DNA of 64,000 nucleotides, from assembly GCA_963726265.1 (NCBI GenBank), contig CAVSBQ010000002.1, positions 448,001 to 512,000 on the forward strand, read 5' to 3'. The notes below the pieces were generated by a model, which had not been told where the DNA came from, searched no databases, and saw only the letters and a list, made by a program, of their open reading frames with translations. Positions within the stretch are counted from its first letter, which is position 1. Each line of letters starts with the position of its first letter. The stretch is from Candidatus Aenigmatarchaeota archaeon. GTDB lineage: Archaea > Aenigmatarchaeota > Aenigmatarchaeia > QMZP01 > QMZT01. Below, piece by piece: positions 1-56,283 of this stretch. The position numbers were made by a program, and so were the translations under genes.

Positions 1-2075
1 ACATGGCAGCCAAACTGGGCCTTGTGAAGAGCGTCATAACGGAAACCGACATGCCGGAACTTCTGGTGACAGGAACATTCACGGACATGAACGCCACGAC
101 ATCGACATACACACAGAAAATCGCTCTTAATGGCGGTACAACTGGCGCGTCAGCAACATTCGGCATCCCAAGCGGCGAGACAGAGCCATTCCTGTACGTA
201 CCGGTGACAACGTCAACGACACCATACAACCTTACGATAACGTTCATCGGTGGCCTTGACCCGACAGCAGTGGACTCGACATACGGCATGAAACTGTTCG
301 GCAAGGACTACACGTTCGGCAACACGCACAACAACCTAACGCTTGAGCTCTATTCGTCTGCAGGAGCGCAGGTTCTGGATCTTAGCGGCGCAGGAGACGA
401 AAAAACAGTGACAGTAGGCAGCCAGTCATTCACGATAAAGCTGAATGGTTGGAACAGCGGCGGAACGACAGCGTACCTGTCAGTCAACGGCGTATCATAC
501 ACGTGGAACGAGGCCGGAACATACACAGTCAGCGGCACCAAGTTCTATGTGCAGTCCGTCGATGTCATATACACAGGCGCGCAGGAAGCGACAGGCATGG
601 TGAAGCTTTTCGTCGGAACGGACAAGCTCTACCTGTCTAACGGCAACCAGATACAGAAGAACGACGTTACGAAGAACAGCTACGTCTACTTCAGTTCGCC
701 ATCGGCAGCCAAGATAAACTCGATAACATTCCAGGTTTTCCCGGATGACGACGTCAACGTGAAGGAAGGCACAGCGTTCACAGATCCAGTCTTCGGTTCG
801 TTCAAGACCGTGATCGGAGGTATGACACCAGGAGTAACGGATACTTCCAGGGATCTGATAAAGATAGCGTCGGACAACACGAACACGAAACTGTCGTTCA
901 AGAACTACGATGGCATGCAGTACACCAACATACCGTTCGCCTACTTTAACAGCACGAACTCGTATGCGCAGATAAGCAACGTAAACGCTTTCCGCACCCA
1001 GGAATGCAACGTGTCTGCAGGAACATACAACATAACGAAGGGCGATTACTTCGTCCTTACGAGCGGCGACTACTCTTACATCCTGAAGTACACCAACTAC
1101 AACTACGACACGGCAGATTCGACGAAGACCTACGTAACCCTTACCGACCTTGCAACCAGCGGTAACTACAAGATATACCCGAACGCTGGCGAAAGGTTGA
1201 CGATCGGTTCGCAGGAATTCGGGGTCCAGTGGAACGGCAACACGCTGAAGACGATCTGTGTGAGCTTTGACGCAGGCACGACATACAACGGAGCAATAGT
1301 GAACATAACGACAGGCGGCAGGGCGCAGATGTCGTTTAATAAGGGAACCGGTGGCAACGGAGCAGTATCGTATGCAAACGTGACATACGTATCTGAAGTG
1401 CCACTATACACACTCTCAGGTTCCAACGAGGCGACAAACGCCTACTCGACGACCTACACAGTGACGGGAAGCTACAGTTCAACGACCGGCGTAAGGCTAA
1501 CAAACAGCCCAACGCCAGACCAGGTCGGCAGCAACAACGAGTGGAAAGACGTTCTACCCTACGGCACCTATGTATACATGACAGGTGACACGAATGGTGC
1601 AAACAGTCTGTCATTATACAGCGCAGGCAAAAGACCGGCACCGGTCAACATTGCCATGGGTACGAACCCAGTGATATCAACGACGGCAGGAGCTGCAGGC
1701 GGAACCTACAACGAGGCTGTTCCGGTAACGAACCCGATAGCCAAGTTCCCAAGCGAGGTAACGCAGACCGCTTCGCTCGACAAGGACCTCATCTTAGTTG
1801 GTGGTCCATGCGCGAACGCGCTTGTGAAGACTTTGCTTGACACGGCTTGGACTTCAACGGACTCTTGCGCAGCTTGGCTGGCAGATGCAGACCTGAAAGA
1901 CAACGGAAAGGGTCTCATCCAGGTGGTCGAAGACATCTTCGGCTCGGGCAAGAAGGCGTTGATAGTAGCGGGTACGAGCGCCCAGGACACCAGGAACCTG
2001 ATAGCCAACAAGGTTATCAAGCCAACTGAGTTCAAGGGACTCGGAGCAGTTGCACAATACAAGGGAGCCGCGTAA
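1..2075 (+). CDS. S-layer protein (probably 5'-truncated at window edge)
   Basis: Thr/Ser/Gly/Asn-rich, many N-x-S/T sequons, C-terminal DKDLILVGGPCANALV...GLIQ...ALIVAG motif of archaeal S-layer C-domains; no signal peptide visible, so it likely starts upstream. Confidence 0.85.
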   Translation, partial: MAAKLGLVKSVITETDMPELLVTGTFTDMNATTSTYTQKIALNGGTTGASATFGIPSGETEPFLYVPVTTSTTPYNLTITFIGGLDPTAVDSTYGMKLFGKDYTFGNTHNNLTLELYSSAGAQVLDLSGAGDEKTVTVGSQSFTIKLNGWNSGGTTAYLSVNGVSYTWNEAGTYTVSGTKFYVQSVDVIYTGAQEATGMVKLFVGTDKLYLSNGNQIQKNDVTKNSYVYFSSPSAAKINSITFQVFPDDDVNVKEGTAFTDPVFGSFKTVIGGMTPGVTDTSRDLIKIASDNTNTKLSFKNYDGMQYTNIPFAYFNSTNSYAQISNVNAFRTQECNVSAGTYNITKGDYFVLTSGDYSYILKYTNYNYDTADSTKTYVTLTDLATSGNYKIYPNAGERLTIGSQEFGVQWNGNTLKTICVSFDAGTTYNGAIVNITTGGRAQMSFNKGTGGNGAVSYANVTYVSEVPLYTLSGSNEATNAYSTTYTVTGSYSSTTGVRLTNSPTPDQVGSNNEWKDVLPYGTYVYMTGDTNGANSLSLYSAGKRPAPVNIAMGTNPVISTTAGAAGGTYNEAVPVTNPIAKFPSEVTQTASLDKDLILVGGPCANALVKTLLDTAWTSTDSCAAWLADADLKDNGKGLIQVVEDIFGSGKKALIVAGTSAQDTRNLIANKVIKPTEFKGLGAVAQYKGAA

Positions 2076-2087
2076 GTCAAACAACCT

Positions 2088-2130
2088 AAAAATTGGGGTC
2101 TAAAAAACCCCTCCCCTTCTTTTTTATTTT
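2088..2130 (+). terminator. putative terminator after S-layer gene
   Basis: GGGGT...ACCCC hairpin followed by T-rich tract between convergent genes. Confidence 0.5.
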
Positions 2131-2193
2131 AATGCTGCAGACGTGAGAATAGAAAAGTGATTCGGCAGTTTCGCTTCCGTTTCTGATAACTGC

Positions 2194-3588
2194 TCATGTT
2201 CTGACCCTGTATATCACGGCCGCATTCTCGTCGCCCCACTGCAGAAAACTTTTAACCCGGTCGAACTCGTCTCTGTTTTCGAAATAATGCTGCGTATAGG
2301 TGGGATTCTTTGGCTCGAACTTGTAGAGCAGGACGTATTTTATGCCGTTTTCCCTGACGTATCCTGGCACGTCGCTCTCGTTCTTGGGAAACACGAACGC
2401 CCTTCTGCCGGAAAGATAATACACGTAGGGGTAGGATTCGGACATTACGGCGTCATTTTCGCTGGTTATGCTATTCAAAAAAAGCGATGTCTCGACCAGG
2501 CCGCTGGACGAATCCCTGTCCTTCCATGCAATAGCGAAGCCGCTGAGGGCGCAATAGAGACACACTATCAAAGCAGCTGCACGCATATATCCTGCATATC
2601 TGGATTCATGCTTGAGCGCAAAGCCTGCGAAAATGGCGTATATGGCAAGATATGACAGCAGATACCTAGGTTCGGCATACGGCATCAGCAGGACGAAGGC
2701 CAGAGGCAGAATGAAGAGCGCGAACAATAAAATGTTCCTGGCTTCGTTTTTCTTTGCCCTAGCGGCGAAAAAGCAAAGGCCGGCCAGCATGAAAACGGCC
2801 TGGAAACCAAGAATTTCCGCCGTGCCCGAAAGGTTGCCGAGGAAATTGTAGGCAGGCAGCTCCTCCGCATAAACCGCGAAATTCGTGAGATAAGAGCCGA
2901 GGAAATTGCCGTAATAAAAATGGCTCGCGGCCAGCCAGGGCGAAAGGGCGAGTAAAAGGCCGGAAATATAAACCATCGTCTTTTTAGCAATGTCCGTTTT
3001 TTCCTTGCCCTTCTTTTCTTTGCTTTTCAGGAACAGGAAAAGGAAATAAAGCATGCATGCAGCTATCAGAAGCGTCCCCAGATATCGTGTAAGCAGCGTC
3101 AGCCCTGCAAGCGCGCCCGCGACGAAAAAATTAGCCCGTTTCTTCTGGCTTTTTGTGAGGAAAAGCAAGGAAAGGCAAAACAGAGCGATAAACAGCGGTT
3201 CGCTCAGGGCCTTTATGCTGAAAAAGACGAACAGCTGGTTTGCCGAAACGAACAGCGAGGCCCACAAGGCGGCGTCCTTTCCGAGAAGCTGCCTGCATAG
3301 CAGATAGACTGTGTACACAGAAAATATTGAAACCAGCGCGACAAACAGCCGCGCAAGCATCACATCATTGGAAAACGGGGAAACCAAAAGAGGAAGGAGC
3401 GGGGGCCTGAACGTTTCAAGCGCTTTCGCCTGGTCCAGGGAATAGTAACCTTTCTGGACGTTTCTGCCCAGCTGGAGATAAACGGCCTCGTCCCACCACA
3501 TGCCCTCGTTTATGAATATGAAGTAGAATTTGGCCGCGAGGGAAAACAGAATCAGAACGATTATAGCGTATTTAAAATATTTCTCCAT
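2194..3588 (-). CDS. GT-C fold membrane glycosyltransferase (PMT/ArnT-like)
   Basis: multi-TM, WWDEAVY and FRPPLLP motifs, EPRYLL. Confidence 0.8.
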   Translation of the reverse strand: MEKYFKYAIIVLILFSLAAKFYFIFINEGMWWDEAVYLQLGRNVQKGYYSLDQAKALETFRPPLLPLLVSPFSNDVMLARLFVALVSIFSVYTVYLLCRQLLGKDAALWASLFVSANQLFVFFSIKALSEPLFIALFCLSLLFLTKSQKKRANFFVAGALAGLTLLTRYLGTLLIAACMLYFLFLFLKSKEKKGKEKTDIAKKTMVYISGLLLALSPWLAASHFYYGNFLGSYLTNFAVYAEELPAYNFLGNLSGTAEILGFQAVFMLAGLCFFAARAKKNEARNILLFALFILPLAFVLLMPYAEPRYLLSYLAIYAIFAGFALKHESRYAGYMRAAALIVCLYCALSGFAIAWKDRDSSSGLVETSLFLNSITSENDAVMSESYPYVYYLSGRRAFVFPKNESDVPGYVRENGIKYVLLYKFEPKNPTYTQHYFENRDEFDRVKSFLQWGDENAAVIYRVRT

Positions 3589-3626
3589 ATTTATTAGAAT
3601 CGTTTCAAATATTAATTACGATTCGC

Positions 3627-4880
3627 ATGTCCGTGGAATTCTGGTCGATGGCGGTTAACTATGCAGCCTGGTATGTTTTCGTATTCATAGCTGTCATGTG
3701 GATGCTCGTCCTTTTCACCAACGGCGACAGGTTCTCCGAGAGAAGGGAAAAAAGGCCCAAAAGGCTTCCGTCGGTCTCGGTCCTCATACCCGCGCATAAC
3801 GAGGAAAAAAACATAGCAATGACCCTGAAATCCGTGCTTGCCCTGGATTATCCGAAAAGTCTCCTGGAGGTTATGGTGATAGACGACGCCTCGACCGACA
3901 GGACAAAGGAAGTTGTAAGAAGCTTCGACGGCGTCAAACTGTTGCGCAACAAAAGGAACATGGGCAAGGCGCATTCCCTCAACAGGGCAATAAAGCTTGC
4001 GAGGGGAGAAATAATAGCGTGCATAGACGCCGATTCGACAGTCGACGGCAAAATACTCATTAAAATGGTAGGGTATTTCGAGGAGCCTGAAGTCGCGTCC
4101 GTGACGCCCGCGCTAAAGGTGCTGAAACCGAGAAAATTTCTTGAGAAAATCCAGGCCACCGAATATCTCCTCAACATATTCCTGAGGAAATCGCTTGACA
4201 TAATCGATTCGATTCATGTTACCCCGGGAGTTTTCTCCGTCTACAGGAAAAGCGTCCTTGTCGAAGTCGGCGGCTTCGACGAAAAAAACCTGACCGAGGA
4301 CATGGAAATCGCGCTGAGGCTGCACGACGCTGGCTACAAAATAAAGAACAGGCTGGATGCCGTGTCCTATACTATATGCCCTTCCAGCCTCCGCTCGCTG
4401 TTCAAGCAGCGCCTGAGGTGGTACAGGGGCGCCCTGCAGAACACTGCGAAATACAGGCACATGCTTTTCAGGCCGAAATACGGCAACCTCGGCATGTTCC
4501 TCCTGCCTTTCAACTTCATCTCCATACTGGCCGTGATAACGCTGTTCATGTTCCTTTTTTGGAACGTGGTGGACACCTCATGGAAGCTGTTAAGGCAGCT
4601 TTACCTCATAGACTGGAACTTCCTCGTGTTTTTGAAGAGCCTGGAAATCGATTTACAGACGCTGTTCATAAACACCATCACCACGCCGATGATATTCATG
4701 TTTATGGGCCTGCTGCTCGGGGGCTACCTGCTCCTGAAAAGCTTCAGTATAACGCACGAGAAGTTCCGTTTAAACAAGCTCGGCTATTTCACATACCTCG
4801 TGATATACCCAGTCATAATGATGTCCTTCTGGTTCACGGCCATGGTTTTCGAGATACTGAGGATTAAAAGAAAGTGGTGA
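3627..4880 (+). CDS. GT2 processive glycosyltransferase (PgaC/cellulose synthase-like)
   Basis: IPAHNEE, DDASTD, DAD, TED and QRLRW motifs plus TM helices. Confidence 0.9.
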   Translation: MSVEFWSMAVNYAAWYVFVFIAVMWMLVLFTNGDRFSERREKRPKRLPSVSVLIPAHNEEKNIAMTLKSVLALDYPKSLLEVMVIDDASTDRTKEVVRSFDGVKLLRNKRNMGKAHSLNRAIKLARGEIIACIDADSTVDGKILIKMVGYFEEPEVASVTPALKVLKPRKFLEKIQATEYLLNIFLRKSLDIIDSIHVTPGVFSVYRKSVLVEVGGFDEKNLTEDMEIALRLHDAGYKIKNRLDAVSYTICPSSLRSLFKQRLRWYRGALQNTAKYRHMLFRPKYGNLGMFLLPFNFISILAVITLFMFLFWNVVDTSWKLLRQLYLIDWNFLVFLKSLEIDLQTLFINTITTPMIFMFMGLLLGGYLLLKSFSITHEKFRLNKLGYFTYLVIYPVIMMSFWFTAMVFEILRIKRKW

Positions 4881-31765: not shown

Positions 31766-31934
31766 CTAATTAATAATTTGTCTGGGAGTTTTTTAAACAT
31801 TTCCGTTTGTGAAAATAGATTTTTGGAAATATACAAATCAAAGTATTCTTTTTTGTCTTTATTTTTGTCAATTAGAGCTTCCGCTGATAGCGGTTCAAAT
31901 GAAAAAAATAGAAATTAGGCGAGTTGTCCTTTTG

Positions 31935-34900
31935 ACAAGGATCTGTCAGGGTATTGGTTAACGTGGGCTGAATGCCTCGCCGAAGCTTGGCACTTACACC
32001 CCGTTTCCATCAACCTCGTCGTATACGAGACCTTCCAAGGCGCGCCGATACTCGCGTATCAGTTTGCCCAACGGTTACCTATTTTCAGGAGAGGCTTCAG
32101 GCTTAGATGCTTTCAGCCCTTATCCTCAGTGACGTAGCTACCCGGCAGTGCAGGCACAACCGGTACACCAGAGGTCACAACGCACTGTTCCTTTCGTACT
32201 ATGTGCATTCTCCCCTCAGGTAACCAACACCTTCAGCAGATATAGACCATACTGGCTCGCACCGTATTTAACCCAGCTAGCGTGGCTCTTTAATGAGTGA
32301 ACACCTCCACCCTTGGACGCTGCTGCACGTCCAGGAAGAGCCGAGCCGACGGCGGAGAAGCAACGAGCGCGGTCGATTTGACCTCTCACTTCCCGATATT
32401 TTCATCACCGCGGCTTTCGAAAAAGCCGCGGCTCAATAGCCAACAGGTTATAACCTGCTGCTGTCCTGACAAAAAATTTGATACGCACTAAGGCGTACCA
32501 TCTTCTTGTCCTGACTTCGAGAACGAGAAATGAGTTATGGACTCTCACGCGCCACGACTCCATTACCCCCAAGGTAACTTTTCTGACAGAGCTGGCTCCC
32601 AGCTAATGGAGACACAGCGGATCGCTAGGCCACGCTTTCGCGTTAGGATTCCTCGCCTTGCGGAATCCTATCAGGCCGGCTTTTGCCCTTGCACTCTAAA
32701 TTCCGATTTCTGACCGGAATGAGCCGACCTTAGGGCGCCTCTGATCCTTTATCAGAGGCGTACCGCCCCAGCCAAACTGCCCATCAATTGCTGTCCCCCT
32801 AAAGGTAAGCAATATGTTAACGGTGGGTTGGTGTTACATTGACGCCTTCCCCAAACCCGAAGACTTGGGTGCGATGCTCCCAACTACACTATGCGACCAT
32901 CAACATACCGCAACAACAGACTGCAGTAAAGTTCTATGGGGTCTTCTCGTCCCGCTGAAGGACTCCGGGTTATTCGCCGGACAACTAAGTTCGCTAGGTG
33001 TCAGGTCAAGACAGTGGGGATGTCGTTAAGCCATTCATGCAGGTCGACAATTAATCGACAAGGGATTACGCTACCTTAAGACGGTCAGAGTTACCGCCGC
33101 CGTTTACCGGGGCTTGGCTGGTTTTGGCCAGTTTAACACACCGGCACTGGGCAGGCATCAGGAGCTATACAAAGCGTTTCCACCTAGCAGCCCCCTACGT
33201 TTTTGTTAAACAGTCGCAACCCCCTTGTTACTGAGACCTACTCGTTCTGTCTGAGACAGAGGAGTAGGCACCCCTTATACCGAAGGTACAGGGCCAATTT
33301 GCCGAATTCCTTGACCTGACTTCTCCTAATACACCTTCGCCTTTTCAGCGAGGGGCACCAGTGACGGTTCTCGGTACGGTCATGAAAGATCCATTCAGAT
33401 TCCCTTTTCACCGATTCCAGGAGTCAACCGAACGGACATACGCCCGCTATTTCTGGTTTCGCCTGCTTCTCACCATTACGGTACTCCACAGGTTTCGCCA
33501 GTTAATCACCGAAGTGATCGGCATATCCCAAAATGTCAGGAATCAGACTTGTGTCGCCACACGTACTTCCATGGTGCAGGAATATTAACCTGCTTCCCTT
33601 TCGATAAGTTCCAGTTGGGGCTTGTCTTAGGACCGACTAACCCTCAGATGACGACCATTGCTGAGGAACCCTTGCCCTTTAGGTGGTGGAGTGTCTCACT
33701 CCACTATTGTTGCTACTATCAGCAAGATCCTTGTTCCTGTAAGGTCCATTCCCTCTTACGAAGAAACTTCTGCCCTACCAGGACACCTCTCTACCATAAT
33801 CCTTTCGGAATCTAAGATATCGGTACCAAACTTAGTCCCGTCCATTTTCAAGGCCCTCAACCTAGATAGGTGAGCTATTACGCTTTCTTTGAAGGGTGGC
33901 TGCTTCTAAGCCGACCTCCCTATTGTCTATGGGTGAAGACGCTTTTCATCACTTAGCTTGGATTTAGGGACCTTAATCTTAGGCTGGGTTCTTGCCCTTT
34001 CGGATACTGAGCTTACCCCAGTACCCCCACTCCGGCCTTCTACGGAGGATGGTAGATTCCGAGTTTGACAGTGCAACTGAACCTTTCGGTTCTTGGTTGC
34101 CCAATCAGTATCTATACCCTGCCATCTTCCTCCGGCCAGGCTATGCTGAGGCATATTTCGAGAGGAACCAGCTATTGCTGAACGCGATTAGCATTTCACT
34201 CCTAGCCCCAGGTCACGTGAGCGATTTGAATCTCAGCATCTCTATCGGGCCTCCATCTAGCTTTCGCCAGACTTCACCCTGCCAAGGGCTAGATCGTCCA
34301 GCTTCAGGTCTTACCCCTGTGACTTTAGGCTCTTTCAAACCTGACCGCCTGACGGCACAAAGCCGATGCGCGGTTCTTGCTTTCGCTGCGGGTACTTGAA
34401 TTACCCTCGCCACAGAAATAAACTCCTTGCCGCGTGTTTCCGCACGGGCGACAAAACTCCTGCAAGCAGGAGCCTTGCCTACCTATAATTACATGGTTTC
34501 AGGCTCTTTTCATCTCCGGTTAGAGATACTTTTCATTTTTCCGTCACCGTACTAGTGCGCTATCGGACTCGGGGTGTATTTAGGATTGGGAGTTACTGGC
34601 TCCCGTATTCCCAATGGATTTTCAACCAATGGTACTCTGGATACCCGCTATCAACCTTCTTCCTTGCTCATACGGGGCTATCACCCTCTACGGCAGATCT
34701 TTCCAGATCACTTTTGATTGAGAAGTTAGGCTGAGCACGGGTCCGAACCCCACATCTCTCCTGGCTTTCACCAAGAGATTCGGTTTGTCCTTTTCCCTTT
34801 TCAATCGCCTCTACTAGGGGAATCACGATTGTTTTCTTTTCCGGCCCTTACTAAGATGTTTCAATTTAGGGCGTCACCGATGACCCGAAGGTCAACGACA

Positions 34901-35033
34901 TATGTCAGGAAGTCCCATTAGGAGATCCCGGGTTCAAAGGCTGCTTGCGCCTACCCCGGGCATATCGCAGCTTGCCACGTCCTTCTTCGGCCCCCGAACC
35001 AAACCATCCACCACGTAACGTAGCAGATCCTTT
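31935..35033 (-). rRNA. rrl: 23S rRNA (ends approximate; contains one intron)
   Basis: recognisable P-loop, A-loop, H69, GTPase centre and SRL; flanked by processing stem 31916-31945 / 35024-35053 with perfect BHB (UGAC/GUCA, AAA bulges). Confidence 0.97.
32378..32536 (-). other. 159-nt BHB intron in 23S helix 89 loop (after E. coli 2477)
   Basis: removal restores GAGUCCAU|AUCGAC colinear with E. coli; 11-bp closing stem; bulges AUA and AAA predict the same cut sites; no ORF. Confidence 0.88.
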
Positions 35034-35564
35034 TTGTCAGGACAACTCGCCTATGTTTCATCATCAAGGAACTCAAATGGTGTTCACTTTTTCATAGAAA
35101 GCGAAAGACGCAAGCTCGCGCATGCGTCTGTCTGCCTCCTCAAGTGACTGTCTGAAGAGTCATCATTCCTCTCCAATCCACCCGCCAAAATTTATTGGCG
35201 AGCTTCATATACCGACATGCAGAATTGCATCGCCGCATACCGGTTTCTTTGTAATTTGGTTAACATGAACTAGCTACCAATAGCTTGTTCAGAATAAGAC
35301 AGACATACTCGCGTACGCCACCCTCTGACTGCATGACCTCTTTCCCTGTCACGGATCAAAGGCCAAGTCTCTGAACAGCTTTGGATAGCCATTGTTAGGA
35401 AACGTATTGCATCACTGCAAGTTTCCGTAAGCGTGAGCAACTATTATATTGTCCCGGGACATTTAAATACATTTCTGGGCCAGTTTTCAGTTGCCGTTTC
35501 TTGCTTTCGTTTTCCGCTAATTCCGCTTCAGCGGAATCTTAAGCCTTTTTTTAAAAGGCTTTTA

Positions 35565-35815: not shown

Positions 35816-37373
<1,558 letters not shown>

Positions 37374-55284: not shown

Positions 55285-56283
55285 ATGGCAAGAGGTCACA
55301 AACCACGAGCGGGTTCGAGAGCATTCTGGCCGAAGAAGCGGGCGAAAAGGATATACCCGAGATTAAAGCACTCGCCGCAGCTTGACATAGTTGCGAAAAA
55401 AGTAAGCGGCACCAGGCCGATCGAATTCGCGGGCTACAAGGCGGGCATGACCCACGTCATCTTCAACGACACGCGAAAGAAAAGCGTCAGCCATGGCATG
55501 GACGTTTCTAAAGCGGTCTCCGTTATCGAATGCCCGCCGCTTTTCGTTTTCGGCATAAAGCTTTACACGAGGGATTCGAATGGCTACGCAACCATGGGCA
55601 TGATATGGTCAAAGGACCTGAAAAGGGATATCGTGAGGAAGCTTGACGTGCCTAAAAAGACGAAGGCGTCGGTTCAGGATTTCGAAGGCAGGCTTGCGCA
55701 GGTCGCGGATGTCCGCGTTCTTGTCCAGACGCAACCGAGGGATACTGGCTTAGGAAAGAAAAAGCCCGAGGTCTTCGAGCTCGACCTTTCCGGTTCGACC
55801 GGGGAAAAATGGCAATACGCGAAGGAGAAGCTCGGCAAGGAAATCGACGTGCGCGACGTTTTCTCCGAAGGTGAGTATGTCGACGTCAAGGGAGTGACGA
55901 AAGGCAAAGGCTACCAGGGCCCTGTCAAGAGGTTCGGCATAAAAATCAGGTCGCGCAAAAACAAGCTCAAGATGCGCCACCTGGGAACCATGGGTCCTGT
56001 CACCCCGAGCAGGGTTCTGCCAGGCGCGGTCGCTCAGGCGGGCCAGATGGGCTTCCAGACCAGAACCGAGTTCAACAAGCGCCTGGTGAAGATAGGCAGC
56101 GACGGCGTAAAAATCGATGGTGGCTTCATCAATTACGGCGAGGTCAGGAAGAATTATGTTCTCATCGAGGGCTCTGTTCCCGGCGCAAGGAAGAGGCTGA
56201 TTTTCTTCAGGAAGTCGTTCAGAAGAATGGACGAGAGAGATCCGACGGAACTGAAATCAATACACACCGGCTCGCAGCAGTAA
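55285..56283 (+). CDS. rpl3: 50S ribosomal protein L3
   Basis: FAGYKAGMTH, VTKGKG.QGPVKRFG, QAGQMGF..RTE.NK. Confidence 0.97.
   Translation: MARGHKPRAGSRAFWPKKRAKRIYPRLKHSPQLDIVAKKVSGTRPIEFAGYKAGMTHVIFNDTRKKSVSHGMDVSKAVSVIECPPLFVFGIKLYTRDSNGYATMGMIWSKDLKRDIVRKLDVPKKTKASVQDFEGRLAQVADVRVLVQTQPRDTGLGKKKPEVFELDLSGSTGEKWQYAKEKLGKEIDVRDVFSEGEYVDVKGVTKGKGYQGPVKRFGIKIRSRKNKLKMRHLGTMGPVTPSRVLPGAVAQAGQMGFQTRTEFNKRLVKIGSDGVKIDGGFINYGEVRKNYVLIEGSVPGARKRLIFFRKSFRRMDERDPTELKSIHTGSQQ

Follow-up and report, generated by a model that had tools for sequence, protein, structure and literature searches.

The question raised by this locus is whether a peptidyl-transferase centre (PTC) altered at many positions at once can belong to a working ribosome and, if so, by which route it was rebuilt. 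The stretch analysed here (the window) comprises 64,000 nt from a Candidatus Aenigmatarchaeota archaeon (DPANN; class Aenigmatarchaeia; assembly GCA_963726265.1, contig CAVSBQ010000002.1, positions 448,001 to 512,000), and encloses a 23S ribosomal RNA (rRNA) gene for which an earlier reading of the letters, the original prediction, had listed ten PTC substitutions and proposed a naturally remodelled, possibly drug-insensitive A-site cleft. The evidence presented below makes it rather probable that the second shell around the A-site cleft underwent a stepwise, compensated rebuilding, representing a natural variant in a single, working 23S rRNA that evolves fast.

The 23S, or large-subunit (LSU), rRNA gene occupies positions 31934 to 35035 on the minus strand and matches the archaeal LSU rRNA model of Rfam over its full length (RF02540, model positions 1-2987; 2499 bits against a cut-off of 50). 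It is the only LSU match in the genome, a metagenome-type assembly of 1.13 Mb in 4 contigs that is 88% complete, and a second, canonical 23S copy, looked for as a sign that this one might be a pseudogene, was not found there. The positional frame derives from a MAFFT alignment of the window with (i) the rrlH 23S rRNA of E. coli K-12 (NC_000913.3; annotated at 760-3663 of locus L031), (ii) a plasmid-borne 23S rRNA of Halarchaeum (L195), and (iii) a canonical archaeal 23S rRNA (L005), from which window coordinates were obtained from E. coli numbering by script. Domain V, whose central loop corresponds to 32245-32570, aligns with the E. coli and archaeal references free of gaps, one insertion excepted, in keeping with the gap-free alignment originally described for the region after removal of an intron. 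An Infernal alignment of 32180-32680 also displays a single insertion, of 161 letters versus 2 in the model, together with mismatches at consensus positions written in capital letters.

Compared with E. coli rrlH and the Halarchaeum 23S rRNA, all ten substitutions of the original list stand where it had placed them. The end of exon 1 (32536-32570, minus strand like all 23S rRNA features below; E. coli 2444-2478) comprises A2448G (32566), C2452U (32562), and A2453G (32561), with G2447, A2450, and A2451 kept, whereas the other changes fall at the start of exon 2 (32245-32376; E. coli 2479-2610), including A2497U (32358), C2499U (32356), U2500C (32355), A2503C (32352), U2504C (32351), G2576U (32279), and U2586A (32269), in addition to an A at 2572 (32283) and the altered pairs of helix 93 (H93). 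The alignment extends that list by G2032U (32972), A2425U (32586), and C2055 (32949), the last being A in both archaeal references; G2032U and C2055 belong, with A2057 and G2058, to the 5' strand of the PTC ring and third shell (32941-32972). On the other side of the ledger, G2061, A2062, C2063, G2251-G2253, G2447, A2450, A2451, C2501, G2502, G2505, U2506, U2552-C2556 (UGUUC), G2583-U2585, and A2602 are unchanged, and among them stand the six bases originally said to be kept (A2450, A2451, G2505, U2506, U2585, and A2602). Every catalytic and transfer RNA (tRNA)-contact base tested is present (A2451, U2506, U2585, A2602, G2251-G2253, G2553, G2583, C2063, A2450, and G2447). As read from the alignment, the substrate-contacting and catalytic bases are unchanged, and the rebuilt layer would be the one behind and beside the A-site cleft, formed by 2032, 2055, 2452, 2453, 2499, 2500, 2503, 2504, and 2576.

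Whether these bases exist outside one assembly can be judged from public libraries. Four of the 20 public runs containing part of the region were examined, each from a separate study, including two DNA runs (X1 and X6) and two metatranscriptomes (X7 and X8), the evidence consisting of assembled contigs of mixed communities. Among the DNA contigs, X1 record 4 shows 0 differences over 32147-32523, although X1 may be the source sample and hence non-independent, and X6 record 12 shows 0 differences over 32244-32360. RNA contig X7 record 21 displays 0 differences over 133 nt of exon 2 and 2 differences over 93 nt of exon 1, and X8 record 26 displays 0 differences over 32536-32646, so that RNA contigs of two studies carry the variant bases, and both exons are covered at 0 to 2 differences from the window. 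The substituted bases occur in RNA libraries, an observation that speaks to presence and not to incorporation into ribosomes.

An artefact, be it a chimeric assembly, an error of sequencing, or an extra copy in decay, would draw support from the metagenomic nature and incompleteness of the genome and from a relative bin, G036, that contains both a variant and a canonical 23S rRNA. However, the canonical copy of G036 sits on a contig of its own, 4.5 kb long, in a bin roughly double the usual size, and is most simply contamination, whereas the genome holds a single full-length, high-scoring gene whose states are identical in 49 genomes, whose helices covary, and with which the contigs of two DNA and two RNA runs agree; an artefact can be set aside with near certainty. 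Error is unlikely because the same bases recur throughout the order, in agreeing DNA and RNA contigs and in covarying helices, which bears out the earlier appeal to covariation: the same bases are found in every 23S rRNA of the order that was examined. The full-length Rfam match, the single copy, the spliced RNA contigs, and the kept first-shell bases identify a real, functional gene, and the substitutions represent natural variation in a ribosome that works, not chance or error. To this extent the phrase "naturally remodelled" was well chosen, given a single-copy gene, its states in each of the 49 genomes of the order that matched, and a spliced variant in metatranscriptome contigs.

The splicing evidence concerns the one insertion in domain V, a structured element of 159 nt in the loop of helix 89 (H89), located between E. 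coli A2478 and U2479 (32377-32535, delimited from the RNA contig joints with an ambiguity of 1 nt). The insertion qualifies as an intron because RNA contigs skip exactly these 159 nt, joining 32376 to 32536 in two contigs of X7 and one of X8, and because the mature junction (CCAUA/UCGACC at the joint) is that of insertion-free relatives and of E. coli. Neither DNA run, X1 or X6, shows the joint, and in X1 a contig reads straight through the insertion. The intron folds more stably than shuffled sequences (z = -6.8), its ends are conserved in two genomes of the same genus with differing inner hairpins, and the remaining genera of the family lack it. A canonical bulge-helix-bulge motif (two 3-nt bulges flanking a 4-bp helix) could not be drawn by hand in either register of the junction, neither register giving a 4-bp central helix between the 5' end of the intron and the start of exon 2 in the hand-worked fold; no dedicated search was made, and a relaxed motif may be present. 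The final 13 nt of the intron (GUGAGAGGUCAAA) closely resemble the final 13 nt of exon 1 (GUGAGAGUCCAUA), and its 5' end (CUCAUUUCUCG) is perfectly complementary to its 3' part (CGGGAAGUGAG). Among the relatives L008, L012-L017, and L021, several 23S rRNA genes reach 4-6 kb through multiple insertions at sites other than that of the window's intron, as exemplified by an insertion lying just past roughly position 2535 (E. coli numbering) in L002, L012, and L015.

The distribution of the substituted bases across Aenigmatarchaeota discloses how the variant is built up. A pattern scan of the class covered 371 genomes, 91 of them with a match, and in the order to which the window belongs 49 of the 91 genomes searched matched. 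C2503-C2504 occurs in all 49 matching genomes of the order, within ...CCGCCG... at 2500-2505, and C2504 in none of the 43 matches outside it. A 23S rRNA match was obtained in 26 of 41 relatives, and all of those covering the region show the same PTC bases, save for the one contig of G036. A looser pattern matched 201 of the 371 genomes and brought up many further variants of 2495-2504 in other families. A scan of public contigs with a 17-base motif proved too short, its 120 hits being mostly chance matches in GC-rich bacteria, with true 23S rRNA in 9 rows from 7 loci.

For the tabulation, flanks were taken for 43 and 40 loci and E. coli-numbered positions were assigned by a profile search and a fixed-length alignment, yielding 27 sequences from the order and 82 from elsewhere in the class; same-contig duplicate loci, the probable contaminants L005 and L153, references, and loci lacking the region were left out. 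In the order, C2503, C2504, U2576, A2572, and U2499 are each found in 27 of 27 sequences, U2452-C2504 in 23 of 23, G2453-C2500 in 21 of 21, and A2586 in 25 of 26, with C (19) or U (4) at 2055 in the 23 sequences read there. The rest of the class comprises (i) at 2503, C in 60, U in 13, and A in 9; (ii) at 2504, U in 82 of 82; (iii) at 2576, U in 80 of 81; (iv) at 2572, A in 79 of 81; (v) at 2452, U in 47, C in 15, and G and A in 1 each; (vi) at 2453-2500, G-U in 35, A-U in 10, G-C in 9, C-U in 4, and U-U in 3; (vii) at 2055, A in 68 and U in 1; (viii) at 2586, C in 64, U in 10, A in 2, and G in 1; and (ix) at 2499, G in 40, U and C in 15 each, and A in 12. G2576U is accordingly class-wide (107 of 108 sequences), and A2448G, found in just 4 of 22 sequences of the order, is a genus-level state. 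As far as these sequences represent the class, they form a graded series, in which G2576U is common to the whole class, C2452U, A2453G, and A2503C/U are frequent, and U2504C, a pyrimidine at 2055, and U2586A are confined to the order, apart from U2055 in 1 sequence and A2586 in 2 sequences outside it.

Extra 23S rRNA genes of canonical archaeal or bacterial type occur in several bins of the class (G036:C42, locus L005; G047:C119, locus L153; G153:C8; G198:C9; and G168), on short contigs or in oversized bins, and are most simply explained as contamination.

Several of the altered positions change together with a partner. In H93, the pairs 2588/2606, 2589/2605, and 2593/2600 read A-U, U-A, and G-C in the window and G-C, A-U, and U-A in E. 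coli, a clean covariation as first described. The claim of a compensated 2453/2500 pair is likewise substantiated: in addition to its constancy as G-C in the order, U2500C occurs only where 2453 is G, in the order and in the nine G-C sequences elsewhere, and A2453 never coincides with C2500 in the class (0 cases), which is what a real pair passing through G-U predicts. X-ray structures place U2500-A2453 and C2498-G2454 pairs at this site with C2499 inserted between them (PMC4690841), and an A2453-C2499 wobble has also been proposed (Bayfield 2004, as cited in PMC4690841). The wobble was tried as a compensated pair passing from A.C to G.U and rejected as the main reading, for want of a conserved pair, given that G2453 is accompanied in the rest of the class by G (26), U (10), or A (8) at 2499. 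The U2504-C2452 base pair is documented (PMC8298421, PMC5154188), and across the class 2452-2504 runs through C-U, U-U, and U-C.

These positions belong to a network already described around U2504. In bacteria, C2055 and a C2452:U2504 pair stacked over A2453-U2500 form a "closed" pocket, whereas the A2055 of archaea and eukaryotes is stacked on U2504, which it draws away, leaving an "open" pocket (PMC5154188); simulations of the H. marismortui subunit point to the same network of nucleotides (PMC4652758). Drug selectivity between the domains is set by second-shell differences of this kind, C2055 in bacteria versus A2055 in archaea and eukaryotes, and an A2453-U2500 pair versus U/U in eukaryotes (PMC5154188, PMC4652758). 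The order resembles these domain-level differences in that 2055, 2452, 2453, 2500, and 2504 appear coupled around U2504, and departs from them in that a pyrimidine at 2055 is joined, in a ribosome of archaeal type, by C2504, U2452, and G2453-C2500, a combination that the relevant parts of PMC5154188 and PMC4652758 do not describe.

Taken with the graded series, this network suggests a route in steps along the lineage. G2576U, with A at 2572, is common to the whole class; C2452U, A2453G, and A2503C/U would have arisen widely within it; U2500C would have followed A2453G, taking the pair from A-U through G-U to G-C; and in the ancestor of the order U2504 would have become C and A2055 a pyrimidine, placing a U2452/C2504 pyrimidine pair over G2453-C2500. 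The paired changes would preserve the overall geometry of the pocket, and translation would presumably be normal. From the bases present, the order's pocket would lie nearer the closed arrangement, attained with different bases, and G2576U and A2503C would alter the neighbouring wall and the entrance of the tunnel. The cause may well be rapid, compensated rRNA evolution in a small-genome lineage, with no dedicated function, and an altered pocket for inhibitors directed at the PTC would be a likely by-product.

Related states occur beyond the class. Public contigs sampled two other archaeal phyla, the first represented by 20 loci (L267-L286) and the second being the phylum of a Thermoplasmata archaeon. 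In the first, 112 of 151 genomes matched the pattern, 26 rows carrying C2504 by hand count, and CC or CU stands at 2554-2555 of the A loop in 18 of the 20 loci, a signature by which this phylum would be Thermoproteota (PMC9976906). Of the 20 loci, 11 have C2504, accompanied at 2055 by C (9 loci) or U (1 locus), with one locus unread there, and the other 9 have U2504, accompanied at 2055 by A (5), G (3), or C (1). U2452 accompanies C2504 in 5 loci and C2452 accompanies it in 6; C2501A occurs in some loci, and G2576 is kept in 20 of 20. In the second phylum C2499U is the norm, and by hand count U2504C is found in 2 rows, A2503C in 3, and A2503U in 1, with G2576 kept in 37 of 37 true 23S rows. 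In the first phylum, 8 to 10 of the 10 loci L267-L276, depending on the position, show G2447A, A2062U, and G2509U alongside U2504C; functional importance is commonly attributed to G2447 and A2062. The variants of the other phyla are like that of the window in U2504C with a pyrimidine at 2055, U2452-C2504 (5 loci), U2500C, and A2503U/C, and unlike it in keeping G2576, in having C or U at 2453, and in some changes at G2447 (to A) and A2062, both of which the window keeps. A2572 had been entertained as a bacterial-like feature and was dropped, since the first of these phyla has it in 19 of 20 loci.

Read jointly in two phyla, positions 2055 and 2504 show a close association, of which the other phylum is an independent replicate: in Aenigmatarchaeota and in that phylum, respectively, 23 of 23 and 10 of 10 sequences with C2504 have C or U at 2055, and 67 of 68 and 8 of 9 with U2504 have a purine there. 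One may speculate, as a tentative extension with the balance of probability against it, that 2055 and 2504 form a coupled switch flipped more than once in archaea, the purine at 2055 giving way to a pyrimidine whenever U2504 becomes C, and that in the order this switch was completed by U2452 and G2453-C2500 into a bacterial-style "closed" cleft with swapped bases, atop the class-wide G2576U. If such a switch existed, pocket geometry and inhibitor spectrum would be unlike those of any solved ribosome, and these lineages would supply ready-made natural designs, already compensated, to those who study or engineer the shell of the active site. Bacteria break the 2055/2504 rule, combining C2055 with U2504.

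Several points weigh against a stepwise, compensated rebuilding as set out above. The U-C state of 2452/2504, originally presented as a swapped contact, is real and constant in the order (23 of 23), but compensation is not demonstrated, because C2452 and C2504 coexist in the 6 loci of another phylum, and the change at 2452/2504 need not compensate. Position 2499 is free to vary in the class, so that C2499U may be neutral and outside any design. Because related genomes are not independent, fewer evolutionary events took place than the counts suggest; odd states in the tabulation, such as G or A at 2585 and G at 2451, probably derive from fragments cut at introns. An intron-less close relative could yield the same joined RNA contig, though such a source is judged unlikely, the exon showing 0 differences over 133 nt where other genera differ at several sites. 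Geometry and function are predicted from sequence alone. Finally, the pace of change was assessed on a weak basis, with "conserved" positions defined by three reference sequences only: the window departs from E. coli, Halarchaeum, and L005 at 167 (13.1%) of the 1272 positions at which these three are identical, including 10 of 46 in a hand-defined PTC set versus 157 of 1226 elsewhere (Fisher p = 0.11). This comparison, indicative only, presents a 23S rRNA that is fast throughout, in which the PTC is not singled out and not spared. The stepwise, compensated rebuilding nevertheless remains the preferred account.

The original prediction also extended to drug response. G2576U is the clinical linezolid allele, and C2452U, A2453G, C2499U, U2500C, and U2504C are known as haloarchaeal linezolid alleles. 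C2452U, A2453G, U2500C, and U2504C are also alleles named in PMC7345174, and C2499U is one cited in PMC4690841. The remodelling might in principle be an adaptation conferring intrinsic insensitivity to natural products that bind the A-site cleft, selected in sediment and peat communities rich in antibiotic producers; in T. thermophilus C2452U confers resistance to tiamulin and all three substitutions of U2504 confer resistance to chloramphenicol (PMC7345174), H. halobium becomes resistant to sparsomycin through C2499U (cited in PMC4690841), the altered bases are concentrated where drugs bind the PTC, and the runs containing the sequence are labelled sediment, peat, and wetland. However, the PTC is not enriched in changes over the whole 23S rRNA (p = 0.11), so that general acceleration fits better than targeted selection, and the states arose piecemeal over the class, with related states in other phyla; selection for insensitivity is accordingly improbable. 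Drug effects hinge on the drug and the context, since A2453G, U2500C, and U2504C leave T. thermophilus sensitive to tiamulin (PMC7345174). By analogy with such alleles, altered drug binding is plausible. The window is like the laboratory and clinical resistance alleles in sharing the same base changes at the same positions of the A-site cleft shell, single changes of this kind being viable in T. thermophilus (PMC7345174), and unlike them in that the changes are combined, fixed in a lineage, and accompanied by partner changes instead of being single, drug-selected mutations.

A protein partner offers another conceivable driver. The window encodes ribosomal protein uL3 at 55285-56283 on the plus strand, and its PTC-directed loop reads GPVTPSRVLPG versus GPWHPARVMW in three solved archaeal chains, two of the five solved chains reading otherwise. 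The rRNA changes could track an altered partner, the pocket having been reshaped when the uL3 finger lost its Trp-His tip, or through another PTC-proximal factor, with the rRNA following or leading. The departure of the window's tip from the three solved chains accords with this, as do the absence of Trp-His in 29 of 30 class genomes sampled and a form of the tip with an RVLPG or RVIPG segment, one residue longer and shared by the window, in 10 genomes of the order and in G188 (family f22). However, G029, a member of the order, keeps Trp-His alongside the full variant PTC, so that the coupling between uL3 and rRNA is loose, and Trp-His is likewise missing from 2 of the 5 solved chains, which makes variation of the tip common; rRNA changes that track a protein partner appear very improbable. 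A homologue search with uL3, intended to give a broad background for the tip, returned close relatives only.

Published figures put most of these positions at about 98-100% conservation, the percentages in bacteria and in the three domains being, respectively, 100 and 100 for C2452, 99.59 and 82.39 for A2453, 100 and 99.64 for U2500, 99.59 and 98.31 for A2503, and 99.59 and 98.43 for U2504 (PMC7345174, Table 3). A natural parallel is the CC variation at 2554/2555 in the A loop of Thermoproteota (Nissley et al. 2023, PMC9976906), which is similarly a lineage-wide change at near-universal, PTC-adjacent positions in Archaea, and differs in concerning other positions, the window keeping UU at 2554/2555. 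PMC9976906 deals with the A loop only and contains no "DPANN" and none of 2452, 2453, 2503, 2504, and 2576; a paper on a crenarchaeal ribosome (PMC10516650) contains no occurrence of "PTC" or "U2504". The PTC variation described here was not found in the literature searched on DPANN, Aenigmatarchaeota, and archaeal 23S rRNA, which did not cover older work on crenarchaeal 23S rRNA and antibiotic insensitivity that may bear on the other phyla. The original prediction had allowed for less novelty should its states prove widespread and documented in DPANN. That proviso is borne out in part, with G2576U class-wide, most other states common in the class, and U2504C, U2500C, and A2503C/U present in two other phyla; no documenting paper was found. 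The prediction was too generous on uniqueness, as most of the single states occur elsewhere, and what is particular to the lineage, on the present sampling, is the class-wide G2576U and the fixed combination in the order.

Knowledge of these positions comes mostly from single drug-resistance mutants, whereas here whole uncultured lineages combine many of the changes, apparently with compensations of their own. They constitute a natural experiment on which combinations of the active-site shell are tolerated, and provide covariation evidence for the 2453-2500 and 2055-2504 contacts in ribosomes that have never been isolated. They also counsel caution, in that conservation statistics derived from cultured organisms understate PTC diversity. 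A new function is not shown, and the altered drug response is a prediction.

The class displays further variation at neighbouring sites. In the A loop of the 82 sequences from the rest of the class, U2552 is replaced by A in 10 and by G in 6, and U2555 by C in 40, the window keeping UGUUC; raw alignments of the A-loop variants (L253-L264 and others) confirm the forms GGAGUUCAC, GGUGUCCAC, and GGUGCCCAC. A2059U is found in 22 of 70 sequences and C2501A in 5 of 82. As for the remainder of the rRNA complement, Rfam detects no 5S rRNA in the 64,000-nt window, the surroundings of the 23S rRNA gene included, and places a 16S rRNA gene upstream of it, at 35816-37373, the match extending over 1558 nt versus 1478 positions in the model.

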